From an uncultured Armatimonadia bacterium (GTDB lineage: Bacteria > Armatimonadota > Zipacnadia > CAVVLO01): 64,000 nt of DNA. The number at the start of each line of letters is the position of its first letter. The first letter of the stretch is position 1. The translations under genes were made by a program, and so were the position numbers. The stretch covers positions 1,088,001 through 1,152,000 of the forward strand of contig CAVVLO010000002.1 of assembly GCA_963749155.1 (NCBI GenBank), given 5' to 3'. The notes beneath the pieces were generated by a model that did not search any database, was not told the origin of the DNA, and saw nothing but the letters and a program-made list of their open reading frames with translations. This document shows positions 1 through 64,000 of the stretch, piece by piece.

Positions 1-1838
1 TCGGATTTCCCACTGGAAGCCTTGAGGCCGAAGCAGCGCCAGGGGCTCGAGGGATTTCGCGGTGTGGTGTATGAGGTACGCAAAGCGGCTTTCCAGAACC
101 AGGACGAGGAGCTAAAAGAAGAAGCCGAAAGCTATTTCCGCGAGCTGCCCTGCCCTGCCTGCAAAGGTCAGCGGCTGAGGCCCGAGTCGCGCTCTTCGAC
201 GCTTTCTGGAGTGAGTCTTCCAGAGTTTGTTGCGCTGACCCTTGAACAGGCCTCGGCGAGGCTTGAACGCGCTGGAGTTTCGCGATTCGCAGCGGTTGGT
301 CGCTGATCCGCTGGTGCGCGAGATAGCCTACAGGTTGAGGTTTCTTCTTGATGTAGGCCTGAACTACCTCACGCTGGACCGCACTGGGCCGACCCTTTCA
401 GGAGGAGAAGCCCAGCGCGTACGGCTGGCGGGTCAACTTGGCGCGGGGTTGACCGAGGTGCTCTACGTGCTGGACGAGCCAACTATCGGCCTGCATCAGC
501 GCGACAATGCGCGCCTGGTAGGCACTCTGCGCAGGCTGCGCGACCTTGGCAACACGGTTTTGGTAGTCGAGCATGACAAGCAGACCATCGAGGCGGCAGA
601 TTTTGTAGTCGATTTTGGCCCTGGGCCTGGTGTCCATGGCGGCACTGTTGTCTACTCGGGCGACTTGCCCGGTTTGCTTAAGGCCGAAGGCTCTCTGACA
701 GGCGATTATCTGGCTGGGCGCAGGCAGATAGAAGTGCCCAGGCAGCGCACCGAAACCAATGGCGCCTGGCTGAAGGTAAAAGGGGCTCGTAAACATAATC
801 TGCACGACCTGACAGTCAAGTTTCCAGTTGGACTACTTGACGGTGGTGACAGGCGTCTCGGGCTCCGGCAAGAGTTCTCTGGTCAACTATACGCTGCTGC
901 CCGCGCTTCGGGCGGTGCTGCATGGCAACCGAGTGCCCGGCTGGGTCGAATGCAAAGGGCTGGAGGGCGCCGAGAGCTTTGACAAAGTTATCGAGATATC
1001 GCAATCTCCCATAGGTCGCACTCCCAGGTCCAACCCGGCAACTTATGTCAAAGTGTTCGACCATATCAGGCAGCTCTTCTCCCAGCTGCCCCTGGCCAGG
1101 CAACGCGGTTACAAGCCTGGCAGGTTCAGTTTCAATGTGAAGGGCGGGCGGTGCGAGGCTTGCGGGGGCCAGGGTGAACTCAAGCTCGAGATGCGCTTTG
1201 TGCCTGAGGTGTGGGTCGAGTGCGATGTCTGCCATGGCAGTCGCTTTATGCCCGAGACGCTTGAGGTGCGTTACAAGGGCAAGAGCATTGCCGACGTGCT
1301 GGAGATGACCATCGAAGAAGCCTTCGAGCACTTCGAGAACCTGCCCCAAATCAACCGGCGGCTGGCTACACTGATGGAAGTGGGACTCGGCTATATGCGA
1401 CTGGGCCAACCCTCTCCAACCCTGTCCGGCGGCGAAGCACAACGGGTGAAGCTGGCGCGCGAACTGGCGAAGCTCTCTCACGGTCGCACCCTTTATATGC
1501 TGGATGAGCCGACGACAGGCCTGCATTTTGCTGATGTGCACCAGTTGCTGGAAGTGTTGCTTAGACTTAGAGACAGGGGCAATACGGTTATCGTAATAGA
1601 GCATAATCCCGAAGTGATGAAGGTCGCCGACTGGCTGGTCGATCTTGGCCCCGAAGCCGGCGAGGGAGGCGGCAGGCTGGTCGCCGAAGGCACCCCGGAA
1701 GATGTCTGCGCTTGCCTTGAATCCTTGACTGGGCAAGTCTTGTGCGAAGAACTGGGGATGAAAGCTCCCAGCCAAATCGAAAAAGGGCGGCAAGCGCAAA
1801 CGCGATGCAGGCTAAGTTCACTCCAAGTGAGACTATAG
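1..1838 (+). CDS. uvrA: Excinuclease ABC subunit A, first unit (5' truncated by the window edge; two apparent +1 frameshifts near 285 and 830)
   Basis: ORFs 22-306, 242-982 and 828-1838 join into UvrA motifs: [58 protein letters not shown], Zn finger [21 protein letters not shown]. Confidence 0.9.
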
Positions 1839-6206: not shown

Positions 6207-7335
6207 GTGGACTGGCATATAAACGAACAGCGCGTGATTGAAAGCTTCCTCGAGTATGTCCAGATTGACTCGGAGACCAAACACGAGGGGCAATTCGGCG
6301 CTTATATGGCAGGCGCGCTGAACGAGCTTGGCCTGGAGGTGCGCACTGACCAGGCCCATGAGGCTTTCGGGGGCGAATACGGCAATCTTATCGCCTTCCT
6401 CCCAGGCACTTGCGAGGGTAAAAGGGTGCTTCTTTCGGCCCATCTGGACACCGTCGCACCCGGTTGCGGCATCAAGCCGAAGCTCGAGGAGGGCGTAATC
6501 ACCACCGACGGTACAACAGTCCTCGGCGCTGACTGCAAGGCGGGTATCGCGGCCATCCTCAGAGGCGCTGCGAGTGGTGAAAGAACAGGGCTTGCCGCAT
6601 CCTGATGTGCAGCTTATTCTCTCCACAGGAGAAGAATCGGGCCTGTTGGGCGCGAGGCATCTCGATCCGGCCGAACTGGCCAGTGAGGTCGGATTTGTGC
6701 TGGATATGTCGGGTGACGTGGGCAACGTGGTCAACGAGGCGGTGCGGCACGACCGTATCTACTTTGACTTCTACGGGAAGGCCGCTCACGCGGGCGTCTG
6801 CCCCGAGCAGGGCATCAGCGCCATCGAGGCTGCAAGCCGCGCCATCACCAAGATGAAACTCGGTCGGATAGATGAAGAGACTGTCGCCAATATCGGCACC
6901 ATCCAGGGCGGCGTGGCTACCAACATCGTACCGGAGCAGGTCCATGTCGCCGGCGAGGCGCGCAGCCACGATGATGCCAAGTGCCTCGCCCAGCTGGAGC
7001 ATATGAAGCAATGCGCCGAGGAGGCCGCCGCCGAAGTCGGTGCCACGGTCGAGGTGCGCCTCGAGTTCGAATATAACCATTATCTTGTGCCCGAGGATTC
7101 CACCGCGATGAGCCTGGTGCGCGCCGCTTGCGAGGCCACAGGCATCGAATGTAAAGTGCAGCGCGGCGGAGGCGGCAGCGACGCCAATATCTACAACGCC
7201 ACCGGGGTGCCCTCTGTCGTTCTTGCCTGCGGGATGCAGGAGATGCATACCAAACAGGAGTACCTCACCACCCGCGAGCTGGTCCGTGCCGCGGAGTTGG
7301 TTGTGAATCTTGTTCTCGCCGCTTGCAAAGCTTAA
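6207..7335 (+). CDS. M20/M25/M40 metallopeptidase, peptidase T-like (apparent +1 frameshift near 6565)
   Basis: SAHLDTV, LGADCKAG, GEESGLLG, GKAAHAG, GGGSDAN, MHTKQE; GGAGG RBS at 6191. Confidence 0.85.
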
Positions 7336-7357
7336 CCGGTGGCCAGGAGGAACTGAA

Positions 7358-8635
7358 ATGAAAGTTGAGTTGCTTTACGGGAGAGGCCATATCGAGGTTG
7401 AGCTGCCCGACGATAATCTGGTGCAGGTGCTGAACAAGCCCTACCTGCCGCCTCTTGCCGATAGCGGTGCCGCGATGGAAGAGGGCCTGACCCATCCCAT
7501 CGGCGCGCAGCCCCTTTCCAAGATCGCCCAGGGCAAGCGCAATGCCGTGGTTACCATCTCCGATATCACCCGGCCCGTGCCCAACAAAGTAATAGTGCCG
7601 CCAATACTGCGGACGCTGGAAGCCGCCGGTATACCTCGCGACCAGATTACAATCCTCGTCGCGACTGGTATCCACAGGCCTGCGACCGACGCCGAGTTGC
7701 TCGAGATGCTGGGCGAAGACATCGTGGCGAATTATCGCATCATCTCGCACGATGCCCGCAAAGAAGACGAGCAGGTTTATGTCGGCGACACCGAGCGCGG
7801 TACGCCCATCTGGATTGACCGGCTCTACATCGAGGCCGACCTTAAGGTCGTCACAGGGCTCATCGAACCGCACTTTATGGCGGGCTTCTCCGGCGGGCGC
7901 AAGGGTATCTGTCCTGGTCTTGTGGGCATCCCTACCGTTGCGCGCCAGCACGGGCCTGTCTATCTGGAAGATCCCAAAGCCGCAAGCGGCAGCCTGGAGG
8001 GCAATCCCTTCCACGAAGAAGCTACCGAGGTCGCTCTGGGCGCCGGCTGCGATTTCCTGGTCAATGCCGTCATTAACGAGAAGCGCGAGGTCGTCGGGCT
8101 CTTCTGCGGTGACCTTATCGAAGCCCACAAAGCCGGCGTTGAACTGTGTAAGCAGATCGTACGCGTTGAGGTCGAGGAGCCGGTCGATATTGTCGTGACC
8201 TCGGCAGCAGGCTATCCACTGGATTCCAACTATTATCAGACTGTGAAAGGGATGGTCGAAGCCTCCCGCCTGCTGAAGCCTGGAGGAATCCTCGTCGTAG
8301 CCTCCAAGTGCACCGATGGGCTGGGCAGTGAGGAGTTCCAGTCCGAGCTTGGCAAGGCGTCCTGCCTGAAGAGCTATGTGGAATCACTGTGCGAGCCAGG
8401 CTATTTCGTCGTAGACCAGTGGGAAGTCGAGATGCTCGCCAAGGCCCTGAACAGCGCCGAGGCTTACATCTACACCGAAGGTCTCTGCCAGGACGACTGC
8501 ACGCTAGGGCATATCCAACTTGTATCCAGCGTGGAAGAAGGCGTCGCGAAGGCAATTGCGAAACTCGGCGCCAAGGCGAAACTGATCGCTATCCCTGAAG
8601 GCCCCTACGTGATGGGAGTTCTGAGAAGCAAGTAG
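7358..8635 (+). CDS. larA: Nickel-pincer-dependent lactate racemase family protein (LarA)
   Basis: [56 protein letters not shown]. Confidence 0.85.
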
Positions 8636-8660
8636 AACTCGCTCACCCTTACTGGCAGTT

Positions 8661-8693
8661 GAAGCCGCCTCGTTCTGGGGCGGCTTCTCCTTT
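8661..8693 (+). terminator. Putative intrinsic terminator after larA
   Basis: GAAGCCGCCTC-gttct-GGGGCGGCTTC hairpin followed by TCCTTT. Confidence 0.6.
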
Positions 8694-8720
8694 GCGTGGG
8701 GCCTTGAGCCTTGCTATAAT
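8692..8720 (+). promoter_or_regulatory. Sigma70-type promoter for leuCD-der operon
   Basis: TTGCGT (8692-8697), 17 bp spacer, extended -10 TGcTATAAT (TATAAT 8715-8720). Confidence 0.6.
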
Positions 8721-8760
8721 GCGGCTTCAAGCCTGCTCAGGCGTTAAGAGGTGGATGCTT

Positions 8761-10029
8761 ATGCAACAACAGACCCTGGCTCAAAAAATACTGGCTGCGC
8801 ATGTTGGCAAAGACCAGGTGACTCCTGGCGAATTTCTTTATGCTTCACTTGACCTGGTGCTGGCCAACGATATAACGGCCCCTATCGCCATCAAGGTCTT
8901 CCGCAGCCTCGGCGCGGACAAAGTCTGGGACCAGAACAAGATCGCGCTTGTACCCGACCACTCGACGCCCAACAAGGACATCAAGGCGGCCGAGCAGAGC
9001 AAACTTATGCGCGAGTTCGCTCGCGAATATGGCATCGTCAACTATTTCGAAGTCGGGCGCGTCGGCATCGAGCATGTGCTGCTGCCTGATGAGGGGCTTG
9101 TGCTGCCTGGCGACCTGGTTATCGGCGCCGACTCGCACACTTGCACCTACGGGGCGCTTGGCGCTTTCAGCACTGGCGTAGGCAGCACCGACGCCGGCTG
9201 CGCGATGGCGACCGGGAAAGTCTGGCTCAAGGTGCCCGAGACGCTGAAGTTCAACATCACCGGACAATTGCCCAAGTGGAGTGGCGGCAAGGACATCATC
9301 CTCTACACCATCGGCAAGATTGGCGTCGACGGCGCTCTCTATTGTGCGATGGAATACACCGGCGACACAATTACCGGGCTGGATATGGCCGGGCGGTTCA
9401 CCATCAGCAATATGGCTATCGAGGCAGGCGGCAAGGCCGGCCTGATAGCCGCCGATGAGAAGACCCTGGAGTTTGTGAAGCCGCGCGCCAAGCGCGAATA
9501 TCACGTCTATGCAAGCGATGAAGGCGCCGAGTACAAGCAGGTCTTCGACTGGAAGGCCGAGGATATCGTGCCCCAGGTAGCCTTCCCGCATCTGCCCGAG
9601 AATACGCAGCCTATCGACGAGGTCGAGAAGCAGCGCATCCGGATAGACCAGTCGGTCATCGGCTCCTGCACCAACGGGCGCATCGAAGACTTGCGTCTGG
9701 CGGCGTCGGTGCTGAAGGGCCGCAAAATCGATCCAAACGTGCGGGCGCTCATTTTCCCTGGCACGCAGCAGATAGTACTGCAGGCCGCAAAAGAGGGCCT
9801 GCTGGATATCTTCATCGAGGCAGGCGCTGCTTTCAGCACGCCGACCTGCGGGCCTTGCCTGGGCGGACACTGTGGAGTGCTGGCCACGGGCGAACGCGCT
9901 ATCTCGACGACCAACCGCAACTTCGTGGGCCGTATGGGCCACACATCAAGCGAGGTTTATCTCGCCAACCCGGCAGTAGCCGCGGCGTCAGCCATCGCGG
10001 GCTATATCTGCTCGCCGGATTCGCTTTAA
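8761..10029 (+). CDS. leuC: 3-isopropylmalate dehydratase large subunit (LeuC/HacA family)
   Basis: [39 protein letters not shown] aconitase-family motifs. Confidence 0.9.
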
Positions 10030-10041
10030 GAGGTGACCAAA

Positions 10042-10545
10042 ATGATTCTCAAAGGCAAAGCCTTCAAATACGGCGACAACGTGGATACGGATGTCATCAT
10101 CCCCGCGCGCTATCTCAATACCAGCGACCCGGACGAGCTGGCTTCCCACTGTATGGAAGATATCGATGCGGGTTTCTGCGATGAAGTAAAGCCTGGCGAC
10201 ATAATTGTGGCGGGAGAGAACTTCGGTTGTGGCAGCTCGCGAGAGCATGCGCCCATCTCCATCAAAGCCTCGGGAGTCTCCGCGGTCATTGCCAGGAGTT
10301 TTGCGCGCATCTTCTTCCGAAATGCGCTCAATATCGGCCTTCCCTTGCTCGAATCGACCGAAGCTGCCGAGGCCATCGCCAAGGGTGATATGGTCGAGAT
10401 AGACCTTACAGCAGGCGAGATACGCGATATCACGACGGGGCAAGTCTTCAAGTCGAGTCCTTACCCCGAGTTTATGCAGAAGCTCGTAGAAGCCGGAGGG
10501 CTGGTCGAGATGACCAGACAATACCTTCGCGAAGGCACTTTCTGA
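10042..10545 (+). CDS. leuD: 3-isopropylmalate dehydratase small subunit
   Basis: [35 protein letters not shown]. Confidence 0.92.
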
Positions 10546-10555
10546 GGTTGAAACT

Positions 10556-12067
10556 ATGAAAAGAGGACGCCACAACAAGCCAACCGGCCCGAAGCTGAGG
10601 CCGCCGGGCCCACTGCCGACTGTTGCGCTAGTCGGGCGTCCCAACGTGGGTAAGAGTTCGCTATTCAATCGCCTGATTGGAGAACGCAAGGCCATCGTCC
10701 ACGAGAAGCCGGGCGTCACTCGCGACAGGCTTTATGGAGTATGCTCGCGCGATGATCGCTGGTTCAATGTCATCGATACCGGCGGGCTTGAGGTTGGCAA
10801 GGCTCTCTCCGATTATGCCTCGCTTATCCGCCAGCAAGTCCAGGTGGCTCTTGAAGAGGCTGATCTGGTGCTCTTCATCACCGAGGCGCCCTTTGGTCTG
10901 GTTGGAGAGGACTCCGAGATTGCGCGCCTGCTGCGGAAGAAGGCCAAAAAAGTAATCGTAGTCGCCAACAAGAGCGACGCAGGTCATGAAGGGGTCGAAG
11001 AACTCGAACACCTCGGGCTTGGCCAGCCTTTACTTGTTACTTCCAAGTATGGCGAAGGCATACGACGACTGTGCGCCATCATCGCCGAGCAGCTCGATAT
11101 CCAGATTTACGAACAGCCCGAGCTTGATCAAACCCTGGAGGACACAAGCGACCCCTCTGACTTCAGTATACGTTCGGCTCCCAGGGTAGAAGAACTGCCC
11201 GTTGCAATCGTAGGCAGGCCAAATGTTGGCAAATCGGCGCTTTTTAATCGGCTGGTACAGCAGGAGCGTTCGCTGGTCGCACCAATACCTGGCACCACCA
11301 GAGATTCTATTGATACGGTAATCGAAATTGATGGAAACAAATATCGTTTCATAGATACGGCCGGTTTACGCAAGCGCGGCAAGGTCACAGAATCTCTGGA
11401 ATATTATTCCACCGTGCGCGCGGCCGGAGCGCTTGAACGTGCCGAGGTTGCCCTGCTGGTGATTGACCTCCAGGAAGGCGTCACCGCGCAGGACCAGCGC
11501 ATCGCAGGGCTTGCCGAAGAACAAGGCCGGGCCATCGTCATACTGGCCAACAAATGGGACCTGGTGCGCGAGGGAGTCCGGGAGCATCTCGATAACTATC
11601 TTGAAGAGGGCGAGGCGCCTGACAAGCCAGAGTTCGACCGCAAGCTGCAACAGGCCAGGCGTGACCTGATAACTGATTTCCGCAGGCGACTCAAGTTTCT
11701 GGCATATGCTCCAGTGCTCTTCACTTCGGCTGAATCTGGCACAGGACTCCAGGTCATCTCCCGCGAGCTGGAAGCAGTCCGCGAGCAGTATGAGGTGCGC
11801 ATCGGCACTGGCGCCCTCAATCGCTGGTTGCAAGAAGCTCTTATCGCCAAACCGCCGCGGATGCGCGGCACCCGCGTGCCCAAGTTCTACTATGCCACCC
11901 AACCCGAGGTTAAGCCACCCACCGTGGTGCTTTTTGTGAACGACCCCGAACTGGTGCATTTCTCATATCGTCGCTATCTGGCCAATGCTTTCCGCGAGGC
12001 CTTCGCGCTGGACAAGACTCCACTTAGTTTCATCTTCAGGCCAAGGCCGCGCAAGGAGCGCAAATAG
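10556..12067 (+). CDS. der: Ribosome biogenesis GTPase Der (EngA)
   Basis: Two GRPNVGKS P-loops, DTGG/DTAG, NKSD/NKWD, C-terminal KH-like domain (HFSYRRYL). Confidence 0.95.
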   Translation: MKRGRHNKPTGPKLRPPGPLPTVALVGRPNVGKSSLFNRLIGERKAIVHEKPGVTRDRLYGVCSRDDRWFNVIDTGGLEVGKALSDYASLIRQQVQVALEEADLVLFITEAPFGLVGEDSEIARLLRKKAKKVIVVANKSDAGHEGVEELEHLGLGQPLLVTSKYGEGIRRLCAIIAEQLDIQIYEQPELDQTLEDTSDPSDFSIRSAPRVEELPVAIVGRPNVGKSALFNRLVQQERSLVAPIPGTTRDSIDTVIEIDGNKYRFIDTAGLRKRGKVTESLEYYSTVRAAGALERAEVALLVIDLQEGVTAQDQRIAGLAEEQGRAIVILANKWDLVREGVREHLDNYLEEGEAPDKPEFDRKLQQARRDLITDFRRRLKFLAYAPVLFTSAESGTGLQVISRELEAVREQYEVRIGTGALNRWLQEALIAKPPRMRGTRVPKFYYATQPEVKPPTVVLFVNDPELVHFSYRRYLANAFREAFALDKTPLSFIFRPRPRKERK

Positions 12068-14110: not shown

Positions 14111-14135
14111 GCTCTTATGAAAGGTGTTATTCACA

Positions 14136-15206
14136 ATGCAACCCACTGATTTACAGGCTGCGCTGTCCGAGGCCAAGTGCAGCAGTCCCGAGTATGTCCG
14201 GCTCAGTATGGCCGCCGCAATGGCGCTCGGTTATCGCAAGGGCTGGTTCTGGCGCGGCGCCAGATGCTGGTGTATCAACCTGCTGCAAACCTATCCCTCC
14301 GGTTGCTTGGCCAACTGTGCCTATTGTGGGCTGGCCAGACAGCGTCAGGGCGACTTCGAAGACAAGAGTTTTATCCGCGTCGAATGGCCCCTGGTGGCGT
14401 ATGAAGATGTGCTCCAGCGTATCCAGGCCAAGGGTGAGGGCGTAAAGCGGCTGTGCATCTCGATGGTGACGAGCAAGCAGAGTGCCCTGGACGTCTTTCC
14501 GATGCTGGAACAAGCGCGCCAAATCGCACCTGCTGTGCCCCGCTCGGTGTTGATAACTCCCACTGTGGTGGATAAAGCCTGGCTCGAGGCCATAAAGGAG
14601 GCTGGCGCCGATTACTGCGGGATCGCAGTGGACGCGGCCACGCCCGAGTTGTTCGACCTGAGACGTGGGGCAGGCGTAAACGGGCCTCACAAGTGGGATA
14701 CCTACTGGCAACGCGTCAGGGAAGCTGTCGAAGTGTTTGGCAAGGGCAAGCTCAGCTTGCACCTTGTGTTTGGCCTGGGCGAGACCGAGCAGGAGTTTTG
14801 CCAGGCGATGCAGCGCGTAGTGGACGAGGGCGCGCGTATCCATCTTTTTTCTTTTTACCCCGAACCAGGTTCGGCGATGGCCGATGTGGCGCCGCCCCCG
14901 ATGGAAGGATACCGCAGGATACAGCTTGCCGCTGCCACACTTGAGCGCGGGTGGGCGCGCGTCGAAGATTTCACTTTTGCCGCTGATGGGCGCCTGTGCC
15001 AGCTTGGCATCAATCCGGAGCAACTGGAGCTGCTGCTCGCTGAGGGCGCCGTCTTTATGACGCGTGGCTGCCCGGCGGTCGGCGGAGAGCTGGCATGCAA
15101 CCGCCCTTATGCCAACGAGCGACCTGATGACGTGCTTCGTAACTATCCCTTCTGTCCGAATACCGAGGATCTGGCTCTCATCCGGGAGACCGTAAAGCTT
15201 AACTGA
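14136..15206 (+). CDS. Radical SAM protein, LipS2-like lipoyl synthase subunit
   Basis: CLANCAYC radical SAM motif; C-terminal TRGCP...CNRP resembles the TxGCPxC(N/D)RP signature I recall for archaeal-type LipS2. Confidence 0.75.
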   Translation: MQPTDLQAALSEAKCSSPEYVRLSMAAAMALGYRKGWFWRGARCWCINLLQTYPSGCLANCAYCGLARQRQGDFEDKSFIRVEWPLVAYEDVLQRIQAKGEGVKRLCISMVTSKQSALDVFPMLEQARQIAPAVPRSVLITPTVVDKAWLEAIKEAGADYCGIAVDAATPELFDLRRGAGVNGPHKWDTYWQRVREAVEVFGKGKLSLHLVFGLGETEQEFCQAMQRVVDEGARIHLFSFYPEPGSAMADVAPPPMEGYRRIQLAAATLERGWARVEDFTFAADGRLCQLGINPEQLELLLAEGAVFMTRGCPAVGGELACNRPYANERPDDVLRNYPFCPNTEDLALIRETVKLN

Positions 15207-15216
15207 GCCAGCCTCC

Positions 15217-16146
15217 CTGTTTGAGGACCGCATAACGCGATTCGGGCGACGCCTGGACTGTTATATACCCTCTTTCAAACGTTACCAGGCGGGCGATTTC
15301 GACAATCGCCACTCGGTTAAGTTCGTCGGGGTCTCGCTGACGGGCACTCACTGCGAGGTGCAGTGCGAACACTGCAAGGCGAAGCTACTCGAATCAATGG
15401 TGTCTGCCGATACCCCTGAGCGACTCCTCGAACTGGCCGAACAACTGAAGGCCCGCGGTGCTGAAGGCCTGCTAATAAGTGGCGGGTCGCTTTCAGACTG
15501 CACAGTGCCTTTTGAGCCCTTCCTTCCCACCCTGGCCGAATTGACAGAGCGACTTGGCCTGGCTATCGCCGTCCATGCAAGTGTTACGACGCCCAGGCTG
15601 GCCAGGCAACTTGCCGAGGTAGGCGTGGCAAGCGCTATGGTAGATTTGGTTGGCGACGATGAGACGGCGCGCGAAGTACTGCACCTCCCAAAGGCCGGGG
15701 TTTTATGGGAATCTCTCGACAATCTGCTTGAGGCAGGCTTGCGAGTGAATCCCCACATCGTGATGGGCCTGGCCTGGGGCAGATTTCGTGGGGAGTATGC
15801 AGCGCTGGAGCAACTTGGGCACCGGGAGGTAAACGCGCTGGTGGTTGTTGGCCTTCGCCCCCTAAAAGGCACCCCAATGGAGAAAGCTCCTGTTCCCCCT
15901 CTTGAAGAACTGGTAGAATTCCTTTCCGCAGCCAGGCAGGAAAAGCTCGCAAGGCCCTTAATCCTTGGTTGCGCGCGTCCACCCGGGCGACTGGAATACG
16001 CTCTGGAGCGCGCGGCGCTTGATGTGGGTGCCGTTGGGGTGGCGTATCCGGCCGAGGAGACGCTGAATTATGCGCGGCAGCTCGGGCTTGAACCGAGAGC
16101 CCTCGAGGCTTGTTGCGCGGTGCCTTTGGGCGGAGAGGAGCTTTGA
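15217..16146 (+). CDS. Radical SAM protein, LipS1-like lipoyl synthase subunit (start uncertain; the frame is open from 15196 but has no ATG/GTG/TTG before the Cys motif)
   Basis: Extending ORF 15358-16146 upstream gives SLTGTHCEVQCEHC (CxxxCxxC); LISGG, PHIVMGL, LGCARP and C-terminal CC match LipS1-type motifs. Confidence 0.75.
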   Translation: MFEDRITRFGRRLDCYIPSFKRYQAGDFDNRHSVKFVGVSLTGTHCEVQCEHCKAKLLESMVSADTPERLLELAEQLKARGAEGLLISGGSLSDCTVPFEPFLPTLAELTERLGLAIAVHASVTTPRLARQLAEVGVASAMVDLVGDDETAREVLHLPKAGVLWESLDNLLEAGLRVNPHIVMGLAWGRFRGEYAALEQLGHREVNALVVVGLRPLKGTPMEKAPVPPLEELVEFLSAARQEKLARPLILGCARPPGRLEYALERAALDVGAVGVAYPAEETLNYARQLGLEPRALEACCAVPLGGEEL

Positions 16147-49210: not shown

Positions 49211-50300
49211 TGGGGGCGACTCCTTCAAGCAGGTCGAGTTCGCGTTCAAGCAGGACTTCCAACTCGTAGTTCTGGACGATGAAAGCTCGGGCGGCAGCAC
49301 CAAGCTGTCTCGACAGATTGTCATCTTCGAGTATGCGTTCTAGCGCCACAGCCAGCTTTTTGGGGTCATCAGAAGCCACTAGTAGCCCTGTTTGGCCATC
49401 TACCAGCACATCTCGGGTGCCTGGCACATCAGCCCCGACGCAGGGCAAGCCGATGGCCATAGCCTCAAGCAGAGCTTTGGGGTGACCTTCCCATTTACTT
49501 GGCAGGACGAAGGCTTTGGCCTGGCGCAGCAGGTCAGGCAACTCGGGGTGAGGCACGACACCAAGGAAGCGGACCTCGAGGCCAAGTTCGGTGGCAAGCT
49601 GGCGAAGGTCAGGCTCAAGTGAGCCAGCGCCTACCAGTGTGACCGGAACAGGCTTCGGGAGCAACGCGACGGCCCGCAGCAAGAGGTCGAGGCGTTTCTG
49701 AGGGGCCAGGCGGCCTATATAGATGAGCCCTTCACGCGGGGCATCAGGCGCGGCCGGGTGGAACAGGGCTGTATCCACGCCATTAGGGATGAGGTGGACA
49801 CGCTCAGCCGGCACAAAGCCCTCGAGATAACGCTTCAGGATGGGCGTCGTTGCGATCAGTGCGTCGGCAAACTGGATAGTCAGGCGTGTCGTGAAGGAGG
49901 CAAGCATCGCGCGCAGAGGGCCCTTGTCCTGATAGGCCGCGCGCGAGTAATGGAACCCGTATGATGCGACATAGGGCGTGCCCAGAAAAAGCTTCGCCAG
50001 AACCGCTGGCAGGCCCCCTTCAGCCTGAGTGACCCGGATAACATCACACTGGCGTAGTTGACGCCACCTGAAGAAGGGCATCAGGAAGCTGTAAAGGATA
50101 CGCTTGCCAAGAGGAGCGCCAGGCAGCAGCGTAAGGCCTGGCAGGCTAACATCCTGCGGGTCATATGAAAAGTAGAAAACCTGGTCGAAGCGGCGGTGAT
50201 ATGCAGCCAGATAAAAACTGGCAAAGCGAGGCAGTTGGCCTGCTTTTGCCAGGTCTTTCAGCGAGCCCCCTGGAGGTGGTATCAGGCCGAGGATTGGCAA
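49197..50300 (-). CDS. Glycosyltransferase family 4
   Basis: IPNGVD, IGRLAPQKR, PSKWEGHPKALLEAMA. Confidence 0.9.
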   Translation of the reverse strand: MPILGLIPPPGGSLKDLAKAGQLPRFASFYLAAYHRRFDQVFYFSYDPQDVSLPGLTLLPGAPLGKRILYSFLMPFFRWRQLRQCDVIRVTQAEGGLPAVLAKLFLGTPYVASYGFHYSRAAYQDKGPLRAMLASFTTRLTIQFADALIATTPILKRYLEGFVPAERVHLIPNGVDTALFHPAAPDAPREGLIYIGRLAPQKRLDLLLRAVALLPKPVPVTLVGAGSLEPDLRQLATELGLEVRFLGVVPHPELPDLLRQAKAFVLPSKWEGHPKALLEAMAIGLPCVGADVPGTRDVLVDGQTGLLVASDDPKKLAVALERILEDDNLSRQLGAAARAFIVQNYELEVLLERELDLLEGVAPNARH

Positions 50301-51398
50301 GAGACCACCTTCTTAAGCCCTTCCATCACCTGGGCTACGGTTATTTGCTCCAGGCAGTCACATTTGGCAAGGGGTGGATTTCTATGCCAGGGAGTCTGAA
50401 TACAAGGCGAGCAAGGCGCTGGCGACCGGATTATGACATGGTCCCCTCCAACTGGGCGGCCTGGCAAGTCATCCCAGGGGCCGAAGAGAGCGACAACCGG
50501 GCAACCAACAGCCGAGGCGAGGTGACATAGCCCCCCATCGGTCGAGAGCAGGGCCTGACAGCAAGCGAGCAGCGCGCCCGACTGCGCCCAGGAGGCAAGG
50601 GGAGCCAGCACAGGAGAGCCGGGCAGGGAGCGCGTCACGCACAGCCTCAACCTCAGGGCGTTCTTCTGGAGAGCCAAGCAAGACCAAGCCGAAACCTTCG
50701 CCAAGTAGATTTATGGCAACTTCAATATAACGCTCCACAGGCCAGCAAAATTGATAAGCCTGGCCCGGATAATCTCGCGGTTTGCTCTTGCCGCTGCCAG
50801 GCGCAATTGCAATAAAAGTCTTTGGTTCAAGAGGCGCAATTTGCGACGCGGCCCAAGTCACTGCTTCCTCAGAGGGCACGAAGACTTCTCGCAGAAGCGG
50901 GGCATCAGGCACGGACAAGCCAGCCTGCCTGGCAAGGTCCAGGAAGACCTCCGAATAATGGCGCGGAGCGCCCCAGTCAGCAGGATGTGAATCCAGACAG
51001 GCGGTATCACCTCCGCCAAGTGAAGCTCGGATCGGCGTCCTGGCAAGCCGGGCGGCAATCCGGGCGACAGGATTTGCCTCAAGCATCAGAGCGATGTCGG
51101 GTTTGAAACGCCGGATGGCACGGATTAAAGCCAGTCGACCGGCAGGGCCAGGCTGTTCGACAAGCAATTCATCTACATAAGGGTTATTCTGTATAGCTGC
51201 CAGCGCGGAAGGCGCAACGAGATAAGCCAGCTTCAGATCAGGACTGGCCTGCTTGAGCCCGGCAAGCAAAGGAGTCGTCATCAGCACATCTCCCAGCTTG
51301 CCGCGTCGAGTGATTAGTATCCGAGCAGGCTGTCCCGTCAATTTGCGAGGAGGAAAGAGCGCCGCAAGCAGATTATAAGCGAGGTGTTTCAGGCTCAC
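50282..51398 (-). CDS. Glycosyltransferase family 9 (heptosyltransferase-like; apparent +1 frameshift near 50620)
   Basis: LGDVLMTTP, NNPYVDE, WPVERY, then TDGGLCHLASAVGCPVVALFGP in the next frame. Confidence 0.82.
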
Positions 51399-58952: not shown

Positions 58953-59354
58953 TCAGCAATAGGAGCTTGTTGATGAAGGTTGTTCTGTAAGAGTCTGGAT
59001 GGCTTTGAGCAGTTCGGCCAAAGAATATGGCTTAAGCATATACAGATCAGCGCCAGCGTCCCTGGCGCGCTGCATATCATCTTCGGTGCCTTTGACGGTA
59101 AGCATCATAACCTTCGTTGCGGGTAAATTGGCTTTAAGCTCCTGGCAAAGGGTGACGCCGTCCATTTCGGGCATCATAACGTCGAGAATAGCCACATCAG
59201 GATGCTCGAGCTCGGCCAGGTCATAGGCCTCTTTCCCATCTCGAGCAAGCAACACATCATATCCCGCCCTGGTAAGATTGAGCTTCATAAGCCAGCGAAC
59301 TTTGTCATCATCGTCCGCGACCAGCACTCTGGGACAGCCCGGCTCGTTGCTCAT
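58953..59354 (-). CDS. Stand-alone response regulator receiver protein
   Basis: VLVADDD, ILDVMMPEMDG, MLT, GADLYMLKPY; no output domain. Confidence 0.9.
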   Translation of the reverse strand: MSNEPGCPRVLVADDDDKVRWLMKLNLTRAGYDVLLARDGKEAYDLAELEHPDVAILDVMMPEMDGVTLCQELKANLPATKVMMLTVKGTEDDMQRARDAGADLYMLKPYSLAELLKAIQTLTEQPSSTSSYC

Positions 59355-59468
59355 CTTGCACCTCCCCGCGGAGTAGAATCCTCCACCTAGATAAATGGTA
59401 TCATTAAATTCCGAAATAAAGCCCCAATAATTCCAGAGCGTTGTTATCTACACGTAAGACAAGAATAT

Positions 59469-60506
59469 CTAATCGACTGCTTTTAGAACCAATTCGGCAA
59501 GTTCTCGTGCCGGCAGTTCTGGGCCGACATAATCGGCCAGTGCCAGTTCGATACGGGCGGTCACTTCGACGATGTCGGCGCGCAAGCCTTTGAGTGAGGC
59601 TTCAAGTCGATTCACTTGTTCCTCTGTAAGGAGGAAATCACCGGTGAAAACCACCTGATCTAGGATACCGCCGGACTTGCTTGCGTAAACACGAACTAAT
59701 CCACCTGGTAGCTTCGACTCGGACTGTCCCAAAGCCTTCTTCGGATGGCGCTGTTCGAAAACCCATTCCTGCGTGCCATATCGTGAATCAACCAAACCCT
59801 GGATAGCTTCACGTTCCCAGTCGCCGAAGCTAGTCTCTATCGGCGCCAAATCAAGGCCCTGGGCAAGCGCCGGGACTATCAGATCAGCCACTTCATCAAC
59901 AGTCAGCGCTTCTCCAACAACCTCGCGCAGGGTCGTGACGCGCTGAGAGGCGGATTCGAGCTGGCGACCTTCCAACTTGGCAAGAGGGATGTTGAGCACC
60001 TGGAGCATCAAATCCAGATCCAGGTCTACCAGAACGCTTGCATGAAAAAGGAAAACTCCCTCGTCATGGCTAGAGGAAGCAAGTCCCGCGATTTTCCTGC
60101 CCTCGACTTCCAGGTCATTTTTGGGACGAAAATGAGCTTCGATGCCAGCCTCGCGCAGGCCCGTCGCCAGTGCTTCCGCAAAACGCACGAAAAGCTGCCA
60201 GGCGGCGGCGGGAGAAGGCTCACACGGGACGGCAAGGGCGATACCAAGTTGGTCAGGGGTCATCAGGATAGCGCCCCCGCCGGTGGCGCGCCGATTCACA
60301 GCAACGCCAAGGCGCTCACAGACTTCCAGGTTGGCTTCTGCATAAGCATCCTGGAAATACCCCAGGATGACAGAAGGCTGAAAACTGTAAAGGTGGAGGC
60401 TCGGTGGGATGCGCCCCTCACTGAGCGCCCGGCTAAGATGCTCGTCAACTGCCAGCCCCCAAGGAGCGGGGGTCTCCCGCTCCCGGAGGACCCTTAGGAC
60501 ACCCAT
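59469..60506 (-). CDS. Lipoate--protein ligase family protein (catalytic domain plus C-terminal accessory domain)
   Basis: LAVDE, LGYFQ, RRATGGGAI, RPKNDLEVEGRKIAG, FHASVL; C-terminal FTGDF..LEASLKG. Confidence 0.88.
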   Translation of the reverse strand: MGVLRVLRERETPAPWGLAVDEHLSRALSEGRIPPSLHLYSFQPSVILGYFQDAYAEANLEVCERLGVAVNRRATGGGAILMTPDQLGIALAVPCEPSPAAAWQLFVRFAEALATGLREAGIEAHFRPKNDLEVEGRKIAGLASSSHDEGVFLFHASVLVDLDLDLMLQVLNIPLAKLEGRQLESASQRVTTLREVVGEALTVDEVADLIVPALAQGLDLAPIETSFGDWEREAIQGLVDSRYGTQEWVFEQRHPKKALGQSESKLPGGLVRVYASKSGGILDQVVFTGDFLLTEEQVNRLEASLKGLRADIVEVTARIELALADYVGPELPARELAELVLKAVD

Positions 60507-61613
60507 CTAGACCAGCCTTTGGAGGATTAGTGGTAGATCCTGGACAGTAATCTCGGACTCAATCGATTTGGCGCCATCGCGGAGGGTGACCATGCACTGG
60601 CCGCAGGAGGTAACGATGAGTTCAGCCCCTGCATCATCGGCTTCCTTGATGCGGTCCGCAGCGATTTTTTGAGCCAGATCGGGATTGCTCGCAGCAAGTG
60701 GGCCACCACAGCAAGCGGCGTCTTCCCGGTTGCGAGGGAACTCTATCAGGTTGATGCCGGGGATAGCCTTCAGTATCTCCCGCGGGGCGTCATATATACC
60801 CATATGCCGCCCGAGATCGCAGCCGTCGTGATAGGCGACGACCTTGTCCAGCGACTTGCTGAAGGTCAGTGTGCCATCGGCGACAAGCTGAGCGAGCAGC
60901 TCGGTTACATGCACGAACTCAAACTCGTCGGTAGGATAATGATGGCGGAAAGCACCCACACAGCCAGGGCAAGTCGAGAAGACTCGCTTGACTCCCAGCT
61001 CTCGCCACTTGGCGATATTAGCCTCACGTAGCGCTTCGAAACCTTTACGGTCGCCAGCACGCCACAAGGGGTCTCCACAGCAGGTCTCTTCACTACCGGC
61101 CGCAGTGTAGTCAAAGCCAATCTTGTCAAGAATGCGGAAGAGCGACTTGGCAATCTTGTTGGAGCTATAGGACACATTGCAACCTGCGAAATAGAGGTTC
61201 TCGCTGGGCTTGCCCACCATATCGGCATCCAGCCAGGAGCCTCGCTCGTCGCGCGGCTGGCCGAAAGGATTGCCTTCTTCGTTGATACCCTTGCGAACTG
61301 CTTGCAGGCCTTCAGGCAACTCGGCGCCACTCTCGACCAGCTCTGCCCGAGCATTAGCAAGCACATCGGCGGTTTCGACTAGTGCTGGACAATGAGAGGT
61401 GCAGGCTCCACAGAAGGTGCAAGCAAAGATAGCATCGACGGCTTCCTGGGGCTCTATCTCGCCTTCTTGCAGAGCTTTGGCAAGCCGGATCTTTCCGCGC
61501 GCCACCTGGGACTCGCGACCAATCTGCTTGTATACGGGGCAGACAGCCTGACATTTGCTGCATTTCATACAGCGTACGATTTGTTCTTCAGATATGACCT
61601 TGTCCGTCATCAT
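60507..61613 (-). CDS. (Fe-S)-binding CCG-domain protein, GlcF/HdrD-like
   Basis: CMKCSKCQAVCP and CTFCGACTSHCP ferredoxin motifs; YFAGC, ETCCG, YHDGCDLGR, CCGG, TSCGQC. Confidence 0.88.
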   Translation of the reverse strand: MMTDKVISEEQIVRCMKCSKCQAVCPVYKQIGRESQVARGKIRLAKALQEGEIEPQEAVDAIFACTFCGACTSHCPALVETADVLANARAELVESGAELPEGLQAVRKGINEEGNPFGQPRDERGSWLDADMVGKPSENLYFAGCNVSYSSNKIAKSLFRILDKIGFDYTAAGSEETCCGDPLWRAGDRKGFEALREANIAKWRELGVKRVFSTCPGCVGAFRHHYPTDEFEFVHVTELLAQLVADGTLTFSKSLDKVVAYHDGCDLGRHMGIYDAPREILKAIPGINLIEFPRNREDAACCGGPLAASNPDLAQKIAADRIKEADDAGAELIVTSCGQCMVTLRDGAKSIESEITVQDLPLILQRLV

Positions 61614-61636
61614 TCCACCTCAGCGGGCCGGTACAA

Positions 61637-63011
61637 CTAATCTATAAGTTTGCCCGGATTCATAATGCCCTTGGGATCAAGAGCCTGCCGGACACGCTTG
61701 AACGTAGCCAGAGTCGCGGGCGAGAACTCCATAGGCAGGTATTTCTTTTTCATAACGCCGATGCCGTGTTCACCACTGATGGTGCCCTCGAGTTTCATTG
61801 CGGCTTCGAACAACTCATCAATGGCAGCCTCGACTCGGGAGAACTCTTCCTTGTCCCGGACATCAGTAAGGAAGGTTGGGTGCAAGTTGCCATCGCCTGC
61901 GTGGCCAAAAGTACCAACCTGGACGTTATACTTTTTCGCGATCTCATCTACGGCGCGCAGCATGGCAGGGATGCGGCTGCGCCGTACAGTGGCATCCTCG
62001 AGCACGACCGTCGGACGCAGATTCGCGAGAGCGGAAAGAGCAGTGCGTCGACCGGACCAGAGCGCATCACGTTCGGCAGCGGTCTCGGCCTTACGGACCT
62101 CGCGGGCACCCGAGTTTTTGCAGACACCAATGATCTCGGCGGCTTCCTGGATAGCGGCTTCCTTCACCCCATCGGCTTCGATAAGCAAGACGGCGCCAGC
62201 ATCGGTAGGGAGGCCACAGGACTTAAAGTTCTCAATCGCATTTATTGTGGCGTTATCGAGGAGCTCCAGCGTGCAGGGGATGATGCCAGCCTTGATAATG
62301 GCAGCAACAGCCATCCCGGCAGCTTCGGCTGTCTCGAAGACGGCGAGCATGGACTCGGTATGCTTGGGCAGCGGGCAGTAGGTTGAGGCTGGCTTCTGTG
62401 ATGATGCCCAGAGTACCCTCAGAACCAACCATCAGTTGCTGCAGGTTGTAACCGGAGACACTCTTAACAGCCTTGGAGCCACAGCGAATTATCTCGCCTG
62501 TAGGCACGACAACCTCAAGTTCGAGTACATAGTCGTGCGTAACGCCATACTTCAGGCCGCGCAAGCCACCAGCATCCTCGGCGATGTTACCGGCGATGGT
62601 AGAGGTCGCATTGCTTGAAGGGTCAGGCGGATACATCAGACCGAAGGGCTTGACCGCATTGTCAACATCGATAGTGATCGCGCCTGACTCGCAGACCAGA
62701 TAGAGATCGTCAGTGTTGACCTCTTTGATGCGGTTCAAGTCGGTGATGACCATCACCAGGCCACCCTCGGTGGGCACACTGCCGCCCGAAAGGCCACTGC
62801 CGGCGCCACGAGGCGTCACTGGGATGAGTTCCCGGTTGGCGAACTGCATCACCTGACTGATTTCCTCGACTGAATGCGGATAAAGGACCGCTTCAGGCAA
62901 GTGCTCAACTATAGTCGCATCGTACCCATAACAGAGCAGGTCAGCTTTACCCGTGAGGACATTATCGGGCCCAACTATCGACCTGAGCTCTGCAATCTGC
63001 TGCTCAGTCAT
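61637..63011 (-). CDS. glcD: FAD-linked oxidase, GlcD/LctD-like glycolate or D-lactate dehydrogenase subunit (apparent +1 frameshift near 62380)
   Basis: PRGAGSGLSGG, YPPDPSS, GLKYGVT, GSEGTLGIIT, EDATV, GHAGDGNLHP, GTISGEHGIG, DPKGIMNPGK. Confidence 0.85.
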
Positions 63012-63037
63012 CCAGGTTCACTCCAGATTGGGGGCGG

Positions 63038-63478
63038 TTAGCCCTGCTTTTCTTTCTCGGCCTTGGCGATCTCGGCCTCAATCCATTCTGTAACAGCGTC
63101 CTCGCCGTGGAAGAGCTCTTCAAGTTCGGCTTCAAGGTCGCTGGGATCAATCTTCATAATCCAGCCTTCCCCATAAGGGTCGCTGTTGATAAGTGTCGCG
63201 TCGTCCTCGAGTTCTTCGTTGACCTCGACAACTTCGCCACTGATGGGCGAGAAAAGTTTCCCAATCCACTTGCTGGATTGAAGTTTGCCGCAGACTTCAT
63301 TCTGAGCAACTTCGTCGCCATCGAAAGGCAGGTCGATATAGACGATATCGCCGCCCTCTTTGGCGTAGAACTCGCTCATACCAACGAGCACTTTGCCATC
63401 ATCCAATACCTTGGCCCAGCTATGCTCCTCGTGGAAAAACATCTCATCGGGCATCTCATAACCTTTAATCTTGGCCAA
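63038..63478 (-). CDS. gcvH: Glycine cleavage H protein / lipoate-binding protein (GcvH/LbpA-like)
   Basis: EHSWA, GDIVYIDLP, lipoyl-Lys motif QSSKWIG, SPISGEVVEVN, INSDPYGEGW; TTG start with AGGGG RBS. Confidence 0.85.
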   Translation of the reverse strand: MAKIKGYEMPDEMFFHEEHSWAKVLDDGKVLVGMSEFYAKEGGDIVYIDLPFDGDEVAQNEVCGKLQSSKWIGKLFSPISGEVVEVNEELEDDATLINSDPYGEGWIMKIDPSDLEAELEELFHGEDAVTEWIEAEIAKAEKEKQG

Positions 63479-63491
63479 CCTGGTTTCCCCC

Positions 63492-64000
63492 TTACTTAAG
63501 GATGAAGTCTTCTGGATCCTGAGCGGAATGTTCCGACAGAACAGGTTTTTGGTCGCTGGCGGAACCAGACCGGTAATTGAACGCGGTCAGGCTAGTTTCC
63601 TCCAACCGTTTATTGAAAAGACGCAAGTCAATACCAACAGGACAAGCCCGCGAGCAGGCGCCACAGTCTACACACCGGCCCGCAAGGTGAAGGGCGCGCA
63701 GTATATGATAGACGTGGTTGTCAGATGGCTCACTCGCATTGCGCACATAGACAGGGCTCTTGCAGCCTGCGAAGCACTCATCACAGTAACACAGTGGGCA
63801 AGCATTACGACAGGCATAGCAACGCAGGCAACGTTCGGCGATTGACTCGAAGAGCTGCCAGCGATCTTGAGCAGGGAGAGCCTCTACAGCGGCGATTTGC
63901 GAAAATTCTTCGGCAACCGGCTCGTAGGCGGGGCCTTCGAGCACGTGATCAGCTTCAGGGGAAGTGCGCAGATTGCACTCGCGGCAGTTGTTCTGCCAGA
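63492..64000 (-). CDS. 4Fe-4S dicluster protein, Flx/FdhB-like subunit (5' truncated by the window edge)
   Basis: CLRCYACRNACPLCYCDECF and RALHLAGRCVDCGACSRACP motifs. Confidence 0.75.
   Translation of the reverse strand, partial: WQNNCRECNLRTSPEADHVLEGPAYEPVAEEFSQIAAVEALPAQDRWQLFESIAERCLRCYACRNACPLCYCDECFAGCKSPVYVRNASEPSDNHVYHILRALHLAGRCVDCGACSRACPVGIDLRLFNKRLEETSLTAFNYRSGSASDQKPVLSEHSAQDPEDFILK

Follow-up and report, generated by a model that had tools for sequence, protein, structure and literature searches.

Enzymes of the heterodisulfide reductase (Hdr) type are common in anaerobes without methanogenesis, and the disulfide on which HdrABC-MvhD and HdrD/GlcD act there has been called unknown (PMC10667645, PMC9723716). 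Could a lipoyl protein take this part? The question is raised by a gene cluster that ends in a 64,000-nucleotide stretch of contig CAVVLO010000002.1 from an uncultured Armatimonadia bacterium (the window, G000:C2:1088001-1152000; positions such as 59469..64000 refer to it). The cluster unites a candidate carrier, a lipoyl H protein, with its ligase and with two complete active sites of the disulfide type; DsrC, the E2 protein of 2-oxoacid dehydrogenases and electron-transferring flavoprotein (ETF) were not found in the genome. We consider it probable that the lipoylated H protein shuttles two electrons between a GlcD-CCG pair and a bifurcating HdrABC-MvhD, a reading carried by gene content and order, motifs, the subfamily status of H and its co-occurrence with partner genes, together with a binding of H to the CCG protein that is predicted by modelling.

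An initial annotation of the window had described five tightly packed minus-strand genes at 59469..64000, with a lipoyl protein and a lipoate ligase around a flavin adenine dinucleotide (FAD) hydroxyacid dehydrogenase and a CCG iron-sulfur protein. All five are present, with intergenic gaps of 13, 26, 23 and 0 nt, and their families were confirmed with Pfam and NCBIfam profiles (Table 1). They form the end of a cluster of 12 genes (hdrC, hdrB, three hdrA, two mvhD, flxC, H, glcD, CCG, lplA) that extends about 9 kb beyond the window edge, a continuation absent from that annotation, which had nevertheless advised looking past position 64000 for hdrA/B/C and mvhD; predicted hdrABC and mvhD genes indeed lie directly upstream. 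Its Hdr-Flx complex stands in part, since hdrABC, flxC and mvhD (flxD-like) are there and flxA and flxB are absent, leaving an incomplete Hdr-Flx in which H follows flxC after 13 nt, likewise in one contig of a near-identical strain. It was right that the window holds no gcvP, gcvT, lpdA or 2-oxoacid dehydrogenase gene: gcvT/H/PA/PB and an lpdA-like gene lie outside it, and none of gcvT, gcvP and lpdA, whose presence in the same operon had been named as the case against the proposal, is in the cluster. The sigma-70 site that precedes hdrC is a match to consensus only; promoter-like sites numbered 4 against 6.1 expected and terminators 19 against 12.4 +/- 3.9 in shuffles, and no terminator assignment was used. 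Single strand, tight packing and one consensus promoter would favour a common role for the 12 genes in the proposed shuttle.

The H protein has the GCV_H fold (PF01597, 123 bits; TIGR00527, 119 against a cut-off of 116), and its Lys70 aligns with the lipoyl-site lysine of solved H proteins. Lys70-Trp71, here called the K-W motif, is kept without exception in the 36 homologs aligned; the best 120 of 922 homologs show 57-96% identity. The protein is acidic (isoelectric point, pI, 4.14), where LbpA has a higher pI and a basic surface towards its ligase, and has an acidic DLPF stretch as in GcvH, while one position after the K-W motif is basic where GcvH has Asp. Its sole cysteine is Cys63, and the terminal cysteines typical of LbpA, a feature with exceptions among archaeal LbpAs (PMC6067878), are absent. 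A quick tree of 199 rows placed H in a 53-row K-W group (Shimodaira-Hasegawa approximate likelihood ratio 97) that includes LbpA-like proteins, and Trp follows the lipoyl Lys in 50 of these 53 rows versus 0 of the 146 others. In a careful tree of 64 rows, the core group around the window protein (16 rows, defined from the first tree; support 99/96), the LbpA-like group (8 rows; 100/99) and GcvH (18 rows; 100/99) were all separate, the LbpA-like rows being not characterised proteins but sequences picked by terminal Cys and tree position, one from a plasmid search and the others from metagenome loci. By these comparisons H appears to form a subfamily of its own, neither the genome's glycine-cleavage GcvH nor LbpA. 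The LbpA likeness proposed initially thus holds for the K-W motif, common to both, and fails on both terminal cysteines and on the separate clade; membership in LbpA is rejected by cysteines, pI and tree position. Among 300 other genomes of the phylum there was no match to H at E 1e-38, a cut of about 130 bits by comparison, where members of the core subfamily score 138-261. Because of this absence, we regard the distribution as patchy and probably the result of horizontal spread.

The CCG protein holds its cluster cysteines in two sets, C145/178/179/215/218 and C265/301/302/337/340, nine of which are invariant and one of which is kept in 73 of 75 homologs. In the wire-type proteins EtfD/EMO, a His caps the site, one Cys is lost and the site is non-catalytic (PMC13083937, bioRxiv 2026.08.18.745454). 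At the His-cap position the window protein has Gly217, which is Gly in 71 of the 75 homologs and His in 2. The CCG protein therefore appears, on its sequence, to have the catalytic-type ligand set of HdrB/HdrD, with the blocking His absent. Its top NCBIfam model is TfrB (185 bits, cut-off 385), its structure model reached a predicted local distance difference test (pLDDT) of 95, and a CCG tree placed it without support. The GlcF/HdrD-like label of the initial annotation is accordingly half right: the protein is HdrD/TfrB-like with ten cysteines and is not GlcF-like, E. coli GlcF and GlpC having nine. A GlcDEF glycolate dehydrogenase is ruled out by these ten cysteines, by a GlcF score of 91 against a cut-off of 333 and by the missing glcE in the cluster. 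The CCG neighbours of LbpA-like H proteins in loci L152, L158 and L161 have degenerate motifs, unlike the window protein.

H is predicted to dock on the CCG protein. The modelled complex scored 0.69 versus 0.01 for the best control. Of 157 solved pairs 116 attain the mark used, as do 2 of 215 mismatched ones, a calibration that is rough because the alignments were our own. Between runs at least 92% of contacts were the same, and partner pLDDT was at least 88. In the predicted complex the H interface comprises residues 46-52, 62-72 (flanking Lys70) and 91-95, and that of the CCG protein the segments immediately after the cluster ligands C145 and C340. CCG residues 153, 156, 345 and 349 are Lys or Arg in at least 63 of the 75 homologs and lie opposite acidic H residues by the contact list. 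In sequence searches of the PDB no listed entry was plainly an H-CCG-like complex, as judged from the listing, with contents unchecked.

On the Hdr side, all four HdrA FAD modules keep the equivalents of E356 and K409 (one module was aligned directly to 5ODC and the other three to that module), residues linked to electron bifurcation in HdrA (PMC12054007). The fused two-FAD hdrA matches the type II architecture of that paper, an unstudied form. HdrABC-MvhD of the cluster is predicted from these residues to bifurcate electrons. In a tree whose sample is H-linked by construction, the HdrB groups at 100/98 with its counterparts from five K-W loci, and the second HdrB of the genome falls elsewhere. 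Of 20 genomes with a K-W H protein, 10 encode HdrB of this type (at least 44% identity, a line set after the gap was seen); it is present in all 6 tested genomes of the closest H subclade, in one of them as fragments at contig ends and in another as a partial gene. None of 300 other genomes of the phylum has it, although 120 of them hold HdrB-like genes at no more than 37%; these 300 genomes are likewise without the core H subfamily. The FlxC-like gene in the window is 38% identical to that of a complete hdrC-B-A-flxD-C-B-A cluster in the same genome, which has no H gene (G000:C2:1240247-1247105) and includes flxBA-like genes (G000:C2:1240247-1242152). In region L209 (G000:C2:1240247-1252000) this complete cluster comes right after nuoL/M/N-like genes of the same orientation, an order that points to a possible link between Hdr-Flx and a membrane arm like that of complex I.

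We also compared the neighbourhoods of related H genes, using the best 80 of 442 and the best 80 of 590 confirmed loci plus 29 short loci from relatives. Loci were grouped by tree first, and neighbours were then counted by tblastn with the proteins of the source genome; the counts leave out the E. coli row, a duplicate, one unextracted locus, five loci of LbpA type and one that lacks the motif. Among the 41 non-LbpA K-W loci, Hdr or CCG genes adjoin H in 21, a window-type ligase in 19, GlcD in 11, GlcD together with CCG in 9 and gcvT/P in 1, whereas the 142 other H loci have Hdr or CCG in 4, GlcD and window-type ligase in 0 and gcvT/P in 37. We give no p-value, because many of these control loci are short or come from Bacillales and because kin do not count as independent; at loci of at least 8 kb, Hdr or CCG was found in 16 of 26 K-W versus 3 of 68 other loci. 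The neighbourhood recurs in other phyla, and K-W loci as a whole span Thermoplasmatota, Thermoproteota, Thermodesulfobacteriota, Actinomycetota, Bacillota, Planctomycetota and WOR-3. GlcD and CCG are fused as one open reading frame (ORF) in L029, L126 and L128, ligase-plus-lipS genes adjoin H in L018 and L132, and LarA-like genes lie beside H-GlcD-CCG in four loci (L035, L037, L126, L128).

A family scan of neighbours, covering 74 ORFs mostly chosen from 174 unannotated ones, accompanied these counts. OsmC-like genes adjoin the K-W H protein or its ligase in the archaeal loci L016, L017, L019 and L050, where OsmC is a possible second client of a dihydrolipoyl carrier; a role of OsmC as reductant in the source genome is rejected, as none was found there. 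DsrE-like genes lie near K-W H in 2 loci. In L133, genes for fumarate hydratase subunits, then hdrA-mvhD, hdrC, hdrB and a gene for an SdhA/TfrA-like flavoprotein come after K-W H, a gene content that may stand for a fumarate reductase linked to lipoyl. In Ethanoperedens and Argoarchaeum (L024, L025), K-W H is without redox neighbours, and in L024 it comes after rpl10e and a translation-factor gene. Asgard H proteins (L052, L066, L073) have the canonical motif and cysteines near both termini, their genes being divergent from an hdrC/hdrB/CCG/hdrA/mvhD cluster in which hdrB was not seen in L073. On an Acidithiobacillus ferrooxidans plasmid (L212, NZ_CP082239.1:14401-18104), an LbpA-like gene has an Hdr-related Fe-S gene, hemerythrin genes and hcp nearby.

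How would H be lipoylated? The cluster ligase keeps the catalytic Lys and is 26% identical to E. coli LplA and 37-40% identical to ligases beside related H proteins; three of the five basic E. coli contact residues (R47, R140, K143) are missing and two are kept. The LipS2-like protein encoded elsewhere in the window is a candidate, by its family match, for the sulfur-inserting enzyme of the cluster H protein. The source genome, rated 100% complete and 5.9% contaminated, also has lipA, a second ligase-family gene that is LipM-like (a label taken from gene length and from its place beside gcvH in relatives, with no NCBIfam hit at 1e-15) and a separate gcvT-H-PA-PB operon about 50 kb away, whose own H is 34% identical to the cluster H. 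The two H proteins thus face ligase-family genes and lipoyl-synthase types that also number two each, giving two candidate lipoate assembly routes, of which the one with Lpl(AB) and the LipS1/S2-like pair would probably serve the cluster H. The only other biotin/lipoyl domain in the genome resembles a biotin carrier, and an lpdA-like gene scores 378 bits (cut-off 409).

Further searches of the genome found no AprA (dsrAB was not searched for), OsmC, FeFe hydrogenase, haem-copper oxidase, MqnA/D family or lactate permease. Three UbiA-family genes are present, as are two LDH/MDH-family genes, for which we did not use a reading as one or the other by a residue rule. A dnaA-dnaN-recF-like region, named by eye, was taken as the mark of a bacterial host. 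A LctBCD-type ETF coupling is rejected, ETF not having been found in the genome, and so is a Qmo role (QmoAB-HdrBC of sulfate reducers), neither AprA nor DsrC having been found there. In the window region 7310-10700 a LarA-like racemase gene (437 bits, LarA cut-off 460) is followed by a gene that by eye is a leuC-like member of the aconitase family. At G000:C2:806812-817040 (L210) there is one NiFe hydrogenase cluster of group 4 type, which also contains an Fdh-like gene and an AsrA/AsrB (FlxB/A)-like pair, and a stand-alone response-regulator receiver gene lies at 58953-59354 of the window, 114 nt downstream of the cluster ligase on the same strand.

In the source assembly one extra base near 62376 splits the glcD reading frame, a break absent from the initial annotation. 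Four public runs were compared over 59300-64000. Contigs of two near-identical strains (X1 and X2, about 97-98% identical) are without one base at 62376, and the other two runs have no contig across it; one X1 contig covers the whole stretch with a single gap, and X1 may have a connection with the source sample. Frameshifts seem to affect further genes of the window as well. The uvrA-like genes (242-4583) and a glycosyltransferase-like gene (50282-51398), named by eye, lie in overlapping frames, consistent with assembly indel errors. Because near-identical strains are without the extra base and other window genes are frameshifted, we read the glcD break as an assembly error, and a glcD pseudogene is unlikely. 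Solved relatives of GlcD include a "glycolate oxidase", LctD (PDB 7QH2) and D-lactate dehydrogenase.

Table 1. The gene cluster and two LipS-like genes elsewhere in the window; positions with two dots refer to the window
Feature	Position	Strand	Remarks
Lipoate:protein ligase	59469..60506	(-)	Fused Lpl(AB) type, 345 aa; LplA-B_cat + Lip_prot_lig_C
HdrD/TfrB-like CCG protein	60507..61613	(-)	368 aa; 2x[4Fe-4S] domain + two complete CCG motifs
GlcD/LctD-family FAD D-2-hydroxyacid dehydrogenase	61637..63011	(-)	FAD_binding_4 + FAD-oxidase_C; frame split near 62376
H protein, distinct K-W subfamily	63038..63478	(-)	146 aa, lipoyl Lys70, single Cys63; GCV_H 7e-36
FlxC-like 2x[4Fe-4S] gene, 3' part	63492..64000	(-)	Start beyond window, near G000:C2:1152454 (approximate)
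mvhD/flxD-like	G000:C2:1152442-1152897	(-)	Beyond window edge
Two-FAD hdrA	G000:C2:1152884-1155910	(-)	1008 aa, type II architecture
Second mvhD	G000:C2:1155922-1156689	(-)	C-terminal extension
hdrA piece	G000:C2:1156686-about 1158371	(-)	
hdrA piece	G000:C2:1158368-about 1159651	(-)	
hdrB	G000:C2:1159653-1160555	(-)	Ten Cys, subtype travelling with K-W H protein
hdrC	G000:C2:1160552-1161091	(-)	
Sigma-70 consensus site	G000:C2:1161130-1161158	(-)	12/12; match to consensus only
LipS2-like radical SAM	14124..15206	(+)	219 bits, cut-off 270; outside cluster
LipS1-like radical SAM	15358..16146	(+)	170 bits, cut-off 230; start probably further upstream; outside cluster

In Hdr, the heterodisulfide of coenzymes M and B (CoM-S-S-CoB) is clamped between two non-cubane clusters. 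In the relay that we propose, Lpl(AB), probably with the LipS1/S2-like pair, would load lipoate on Lys70 of H. HdrA would take electrons via MvhD/FlxC, probably from NADH through FlxBA encoded elsewhere in the genome, and would split them between ferredoxin and HdrCB, which would reduce the lipoyl disulfide. Dihydrolipoyl-H would then dock on the CCG protein, as the predicted binding suggests, and be re-oxidised at its two non-cubane clusters, from where electrons would run through the CCG cubanes and the FAD of GlcD to a 2-oxoacid such as pyruvate, giving a D-2-hydroxyacid. The net reaction would be 2 NADH + 2-oxoacid + oxidised ferredoxin -> D-hydroxyacid + reduced ferredoxin.

The initial annotation had the electrons running the other way, with lactate or glycolate oxidation reducing the lipoyl disulfide. 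With potentials of -290 mV for lipoamide (PMC6067878) and of -190, -320 and -420 mV for pyruvate, NAD and ferredoxin (PMC5861303), electron transfer from lactate to the lipoyl disulfide would be uphill by about 19 kJ/mol, whereas 2 NADH to pyruvate plus ferredoxin yields -6 kJ/mol, both at standard potentials, and the reverse of the annotated direction is at least as likely. By these computed energies, the proposed relay could run only with all its steps coupled and close to equilibrium, as LctBCD does. As no oxidase, sulfate pathway or lactate permease was found, we lean slightly to NADH-driven 2-oxoacid reduction with a gain of ferredoxin; hydroxyacid oxidation, as annotated initially, has in our estimate somewhat less than an even chance. 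We also put forward, tentatively and at slightly under even odds, that lipoyl H proteins of the K-W type, as a widespread subfamily, are the general thiol/disulfide currency for a class of Hdr/HdrD/Tfr-like enzymes of anaerobes without methanogenesis, where they would replace CoM-S-S-CoB (revised to -281 mV; PMC12054007) by a protein-bound group of near-equal potential. The cluster would then be a bifurcating 2-hydroxyacid oxidoreductase that is self-contained, does without ETF and brings its own route of lipoylation.

Several observations weigh against a relay with H at its centre. The cluster lacks an NADH-binding subunit, glcD is frameshifted in the source assembly, and bifurcation from 2 NADH to lipoamide and ferredoxin would cost 13.5 kJ/mol in the standard state, unless GlcD-CCG keeps H oxidised. 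HdrA, GlcD, CCG and ligase occur together in only 2 of the 41 K-W loci, 10 of the 41 have no Hdr, CCG, GlcD or ligase neighbour at all, and 10 of the 20 K-W H genomes are without window-type HdrB. Among solved folds, that of EtfD, an electron wire, comes nearest to the CCG protein, ahead of LutA and HdrB. In the predicted complex Lys70 is not among the confidently placed residues, and the controls, run with our own alignments, did not include canonical GcvH, while close cousins can pass. The lpdA-like gene could short-circuit the carrier. Lastly, H stands apart from canonical GcvH in the best tree, but an approximately unbiased (AU) test did not reject joint placement (p=0.106); canonical GcvH as the main role is nevertheless rejected, given the separate gcv operon and the single relative among 41 near gcvT/P, with the AU test not excluding it.

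The scattered partners would fit a modular family in which H serves one disulfide-type site only, most likely GlcD-CCG, while Hdr uses another thiol or direct Fe-S wiring, the cluster then holding two side-by-side modules. Indeed, GlcD and/or CCG lies beside H in 7 of the 10 K-W H genomes without window-type HdrB, several loci have H with Hdr but without GlcD, and the complex modelling covered the H-CCG pair only. We regard this as unlikely, as a single-partner carrier would still require a second enzyme for recycling, and window-type HdrB is present throughout the tested closest subclade and groups firmly with that of five other H loci. The missing flxB and flxA invite another explanation, namely that H and the genome's dihydrolipoamide dehydrogenase (Lpd) replace FlxBA as an NAD(H) port, with electrons passing from NADH over Lpd and lipoyl-H to GlcD-CCG and/or HdrB: H occupies the place that flxB and flxA take in related clusters (flxC-flxB-flxA in L018, L027 and L128), the genome has the lpdA-like gene, L038 has lpdA beside H-CCG-ligase, and re-oxidation by Lpd is the model proposed for LbpA (PMC6067878). 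However, in those same three clusters H co-occurs with intact flxBA and is no simple substitute, lpdA adjoins H in 1 of 46 loci of the K-W clade, and lpdA already has an ordinary client in the glycine cleavage system, all of which makes this port quite improbable.

That H is instead a sulfur carrier, lipoate-relay or peroxide-defence protein, with GlcD-CCG wired through Fe-S clusters to quinone or another acceptor as in GlcF, LutA and EtfD, has little probability in our judgement. It would agree with the K-W motif common to H and LbpA, with the OsmC-like neighbours in four archaeal loci and the DsrE-like ones in two, with EtfD as the best fold match and with the three UbiA-family genes, which leave quinone synthesis possible; against it are the lack of terminal cysteines in H, the absence of a sulfurtransferase or membrane-anchor gene from the cluster, the failure to find OsmC and MqnA/D in the genome, the catalytic-type CCG ligands and the direct H-CCG contact that the model favours. 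Hardly credible, finally, is a cluster decaying here (glcD a pseudogene, flxBA lost) with a relay no longer functional. The glcD frameshift and the missing flxBA would be its signs, but both near-identical strains lack the extra base, one contig runs across the whole stretch with its single gap, other window genes are frameshifted too, as assembly indels would give, and the catalytic motifs are intact.

How much of the proposed lipoyl relay is new? That no characterised example was known agrees with our literature searches, which found no biochemical characterisation of a lipoyl carrier with HdrABC or HdrD/GlcD and did not cover most subscription papers and supplements, but the idea itself is in print: GcvH as an Hdr disulfide carrier (PMC9723716) and HdrD/GlcD with an unknown disulfide (PMC10667645). 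The locus adds a cycle of two enzymes that is complete within one cluster, motifs of the catalytic type, the co-distribution of subtypes and a complex model that passes. The H carrier is likely the disulfide used by Hdr-type enzymes outside methanogens, and the question becomes directly testable in vitro with few soluble proteins. If true, lipoate gains a respiratory-type electron-shuttle role, and many "orphan gcvH" genes of anaerobes have been mis-read as glycine cleavage.

Known systems share parts of this arrangement, while membership in sHdr-LbpA, GlcDEF, complete Flx-Hdr or Qmo is rejected by our tests on cluster and genome. FlxABCD-HdrABC of Desulfovibrio reportedly has DsrC as its disulfide partner and is said to have the hdrC-hdrB-hdrA-flxD-flxC order also seen here; the present cluster differs in having no flxB/flxA and four HdrA FAD modules, with DsrC not found in the genome. 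In its lipoyl part the cluster resembles the sHdr-LbpA-sLpl(AB)-LipS1/S2 system, in which an H-like lipoyl protein, its lipoyl lysine followed by the K-W motif, and a dedicated ligase are encoded by Hdr-like genes, with LipS1/S2-like synthases in the genome as here (PMC6067878, PMC10332631, bioRxiv 2026.10.01.755906). In contrast, the cluster H is without terminal cysteines, acidic and in a separate clade, its HdrB has ten cysteines, its HdrA modules keep E356/K409, TusA/DsrE genes are absent, and its partner is a hydroxyacid dehydrogenase. In the Culexarchaeia Ehe hydrogenase cluster, a GcvH-like gene likewise sits inside an Hdr cluster of a non-methanogen, and GcvH was suggested to coordinate the disulfide for HdrB or HdrA2B2C2 (Kohtz et al., 2022; PMC9723716). 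That suggestion is sequence-based and concerns an archaeal membrane hydrogenase, and the consulted parts of the paper mention neither a ligase nor a GlcD-CCG partner, and neither a model nor an analysis of subfamilies.

On the hydroxyacid side, Bathyarchaeia, Methanomethylicia, Korarchaeia and Archaeoglobus have GlcD by an HdrD-like CCG protein, with HdrABC/MvhD in the genome, and this HdrD/GlcD was proposed to couple lactate to heterodisulfide (PMC10667645, PMC6421429). Its disulfide is taken to be CoM-S-S-CoB or left unknown, and its conservation in lineages without MCR was termed puzzling (PMC10667645); here, in a bacterium, the pair lies between the genes of a candidate carrier and of its ligase. 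LctBCD of Acetobacterium woodii (PMC5861303; PDB 7QH2) has a homologous dehydrogenase and the same predicted net reaction, and uses ETF where the proposed relay would use Hdr and a lipoyl protein instead. In the thiol:fumarate reductase TfrAB, electrons likewise pass from thiols through a catalytic CCG domain to the reduction of an organic acid, although TfrAB uses CoM/CoB and fumarate (bioRxiv 2026.08.18.745454), whereas the window flavoprotein is of GlcD type and the thiol would be protein-bound. By analogy, then, the proposed relay would work like the Hdr of methanogens joined to a TfrAB-like thiol-driven reductase.

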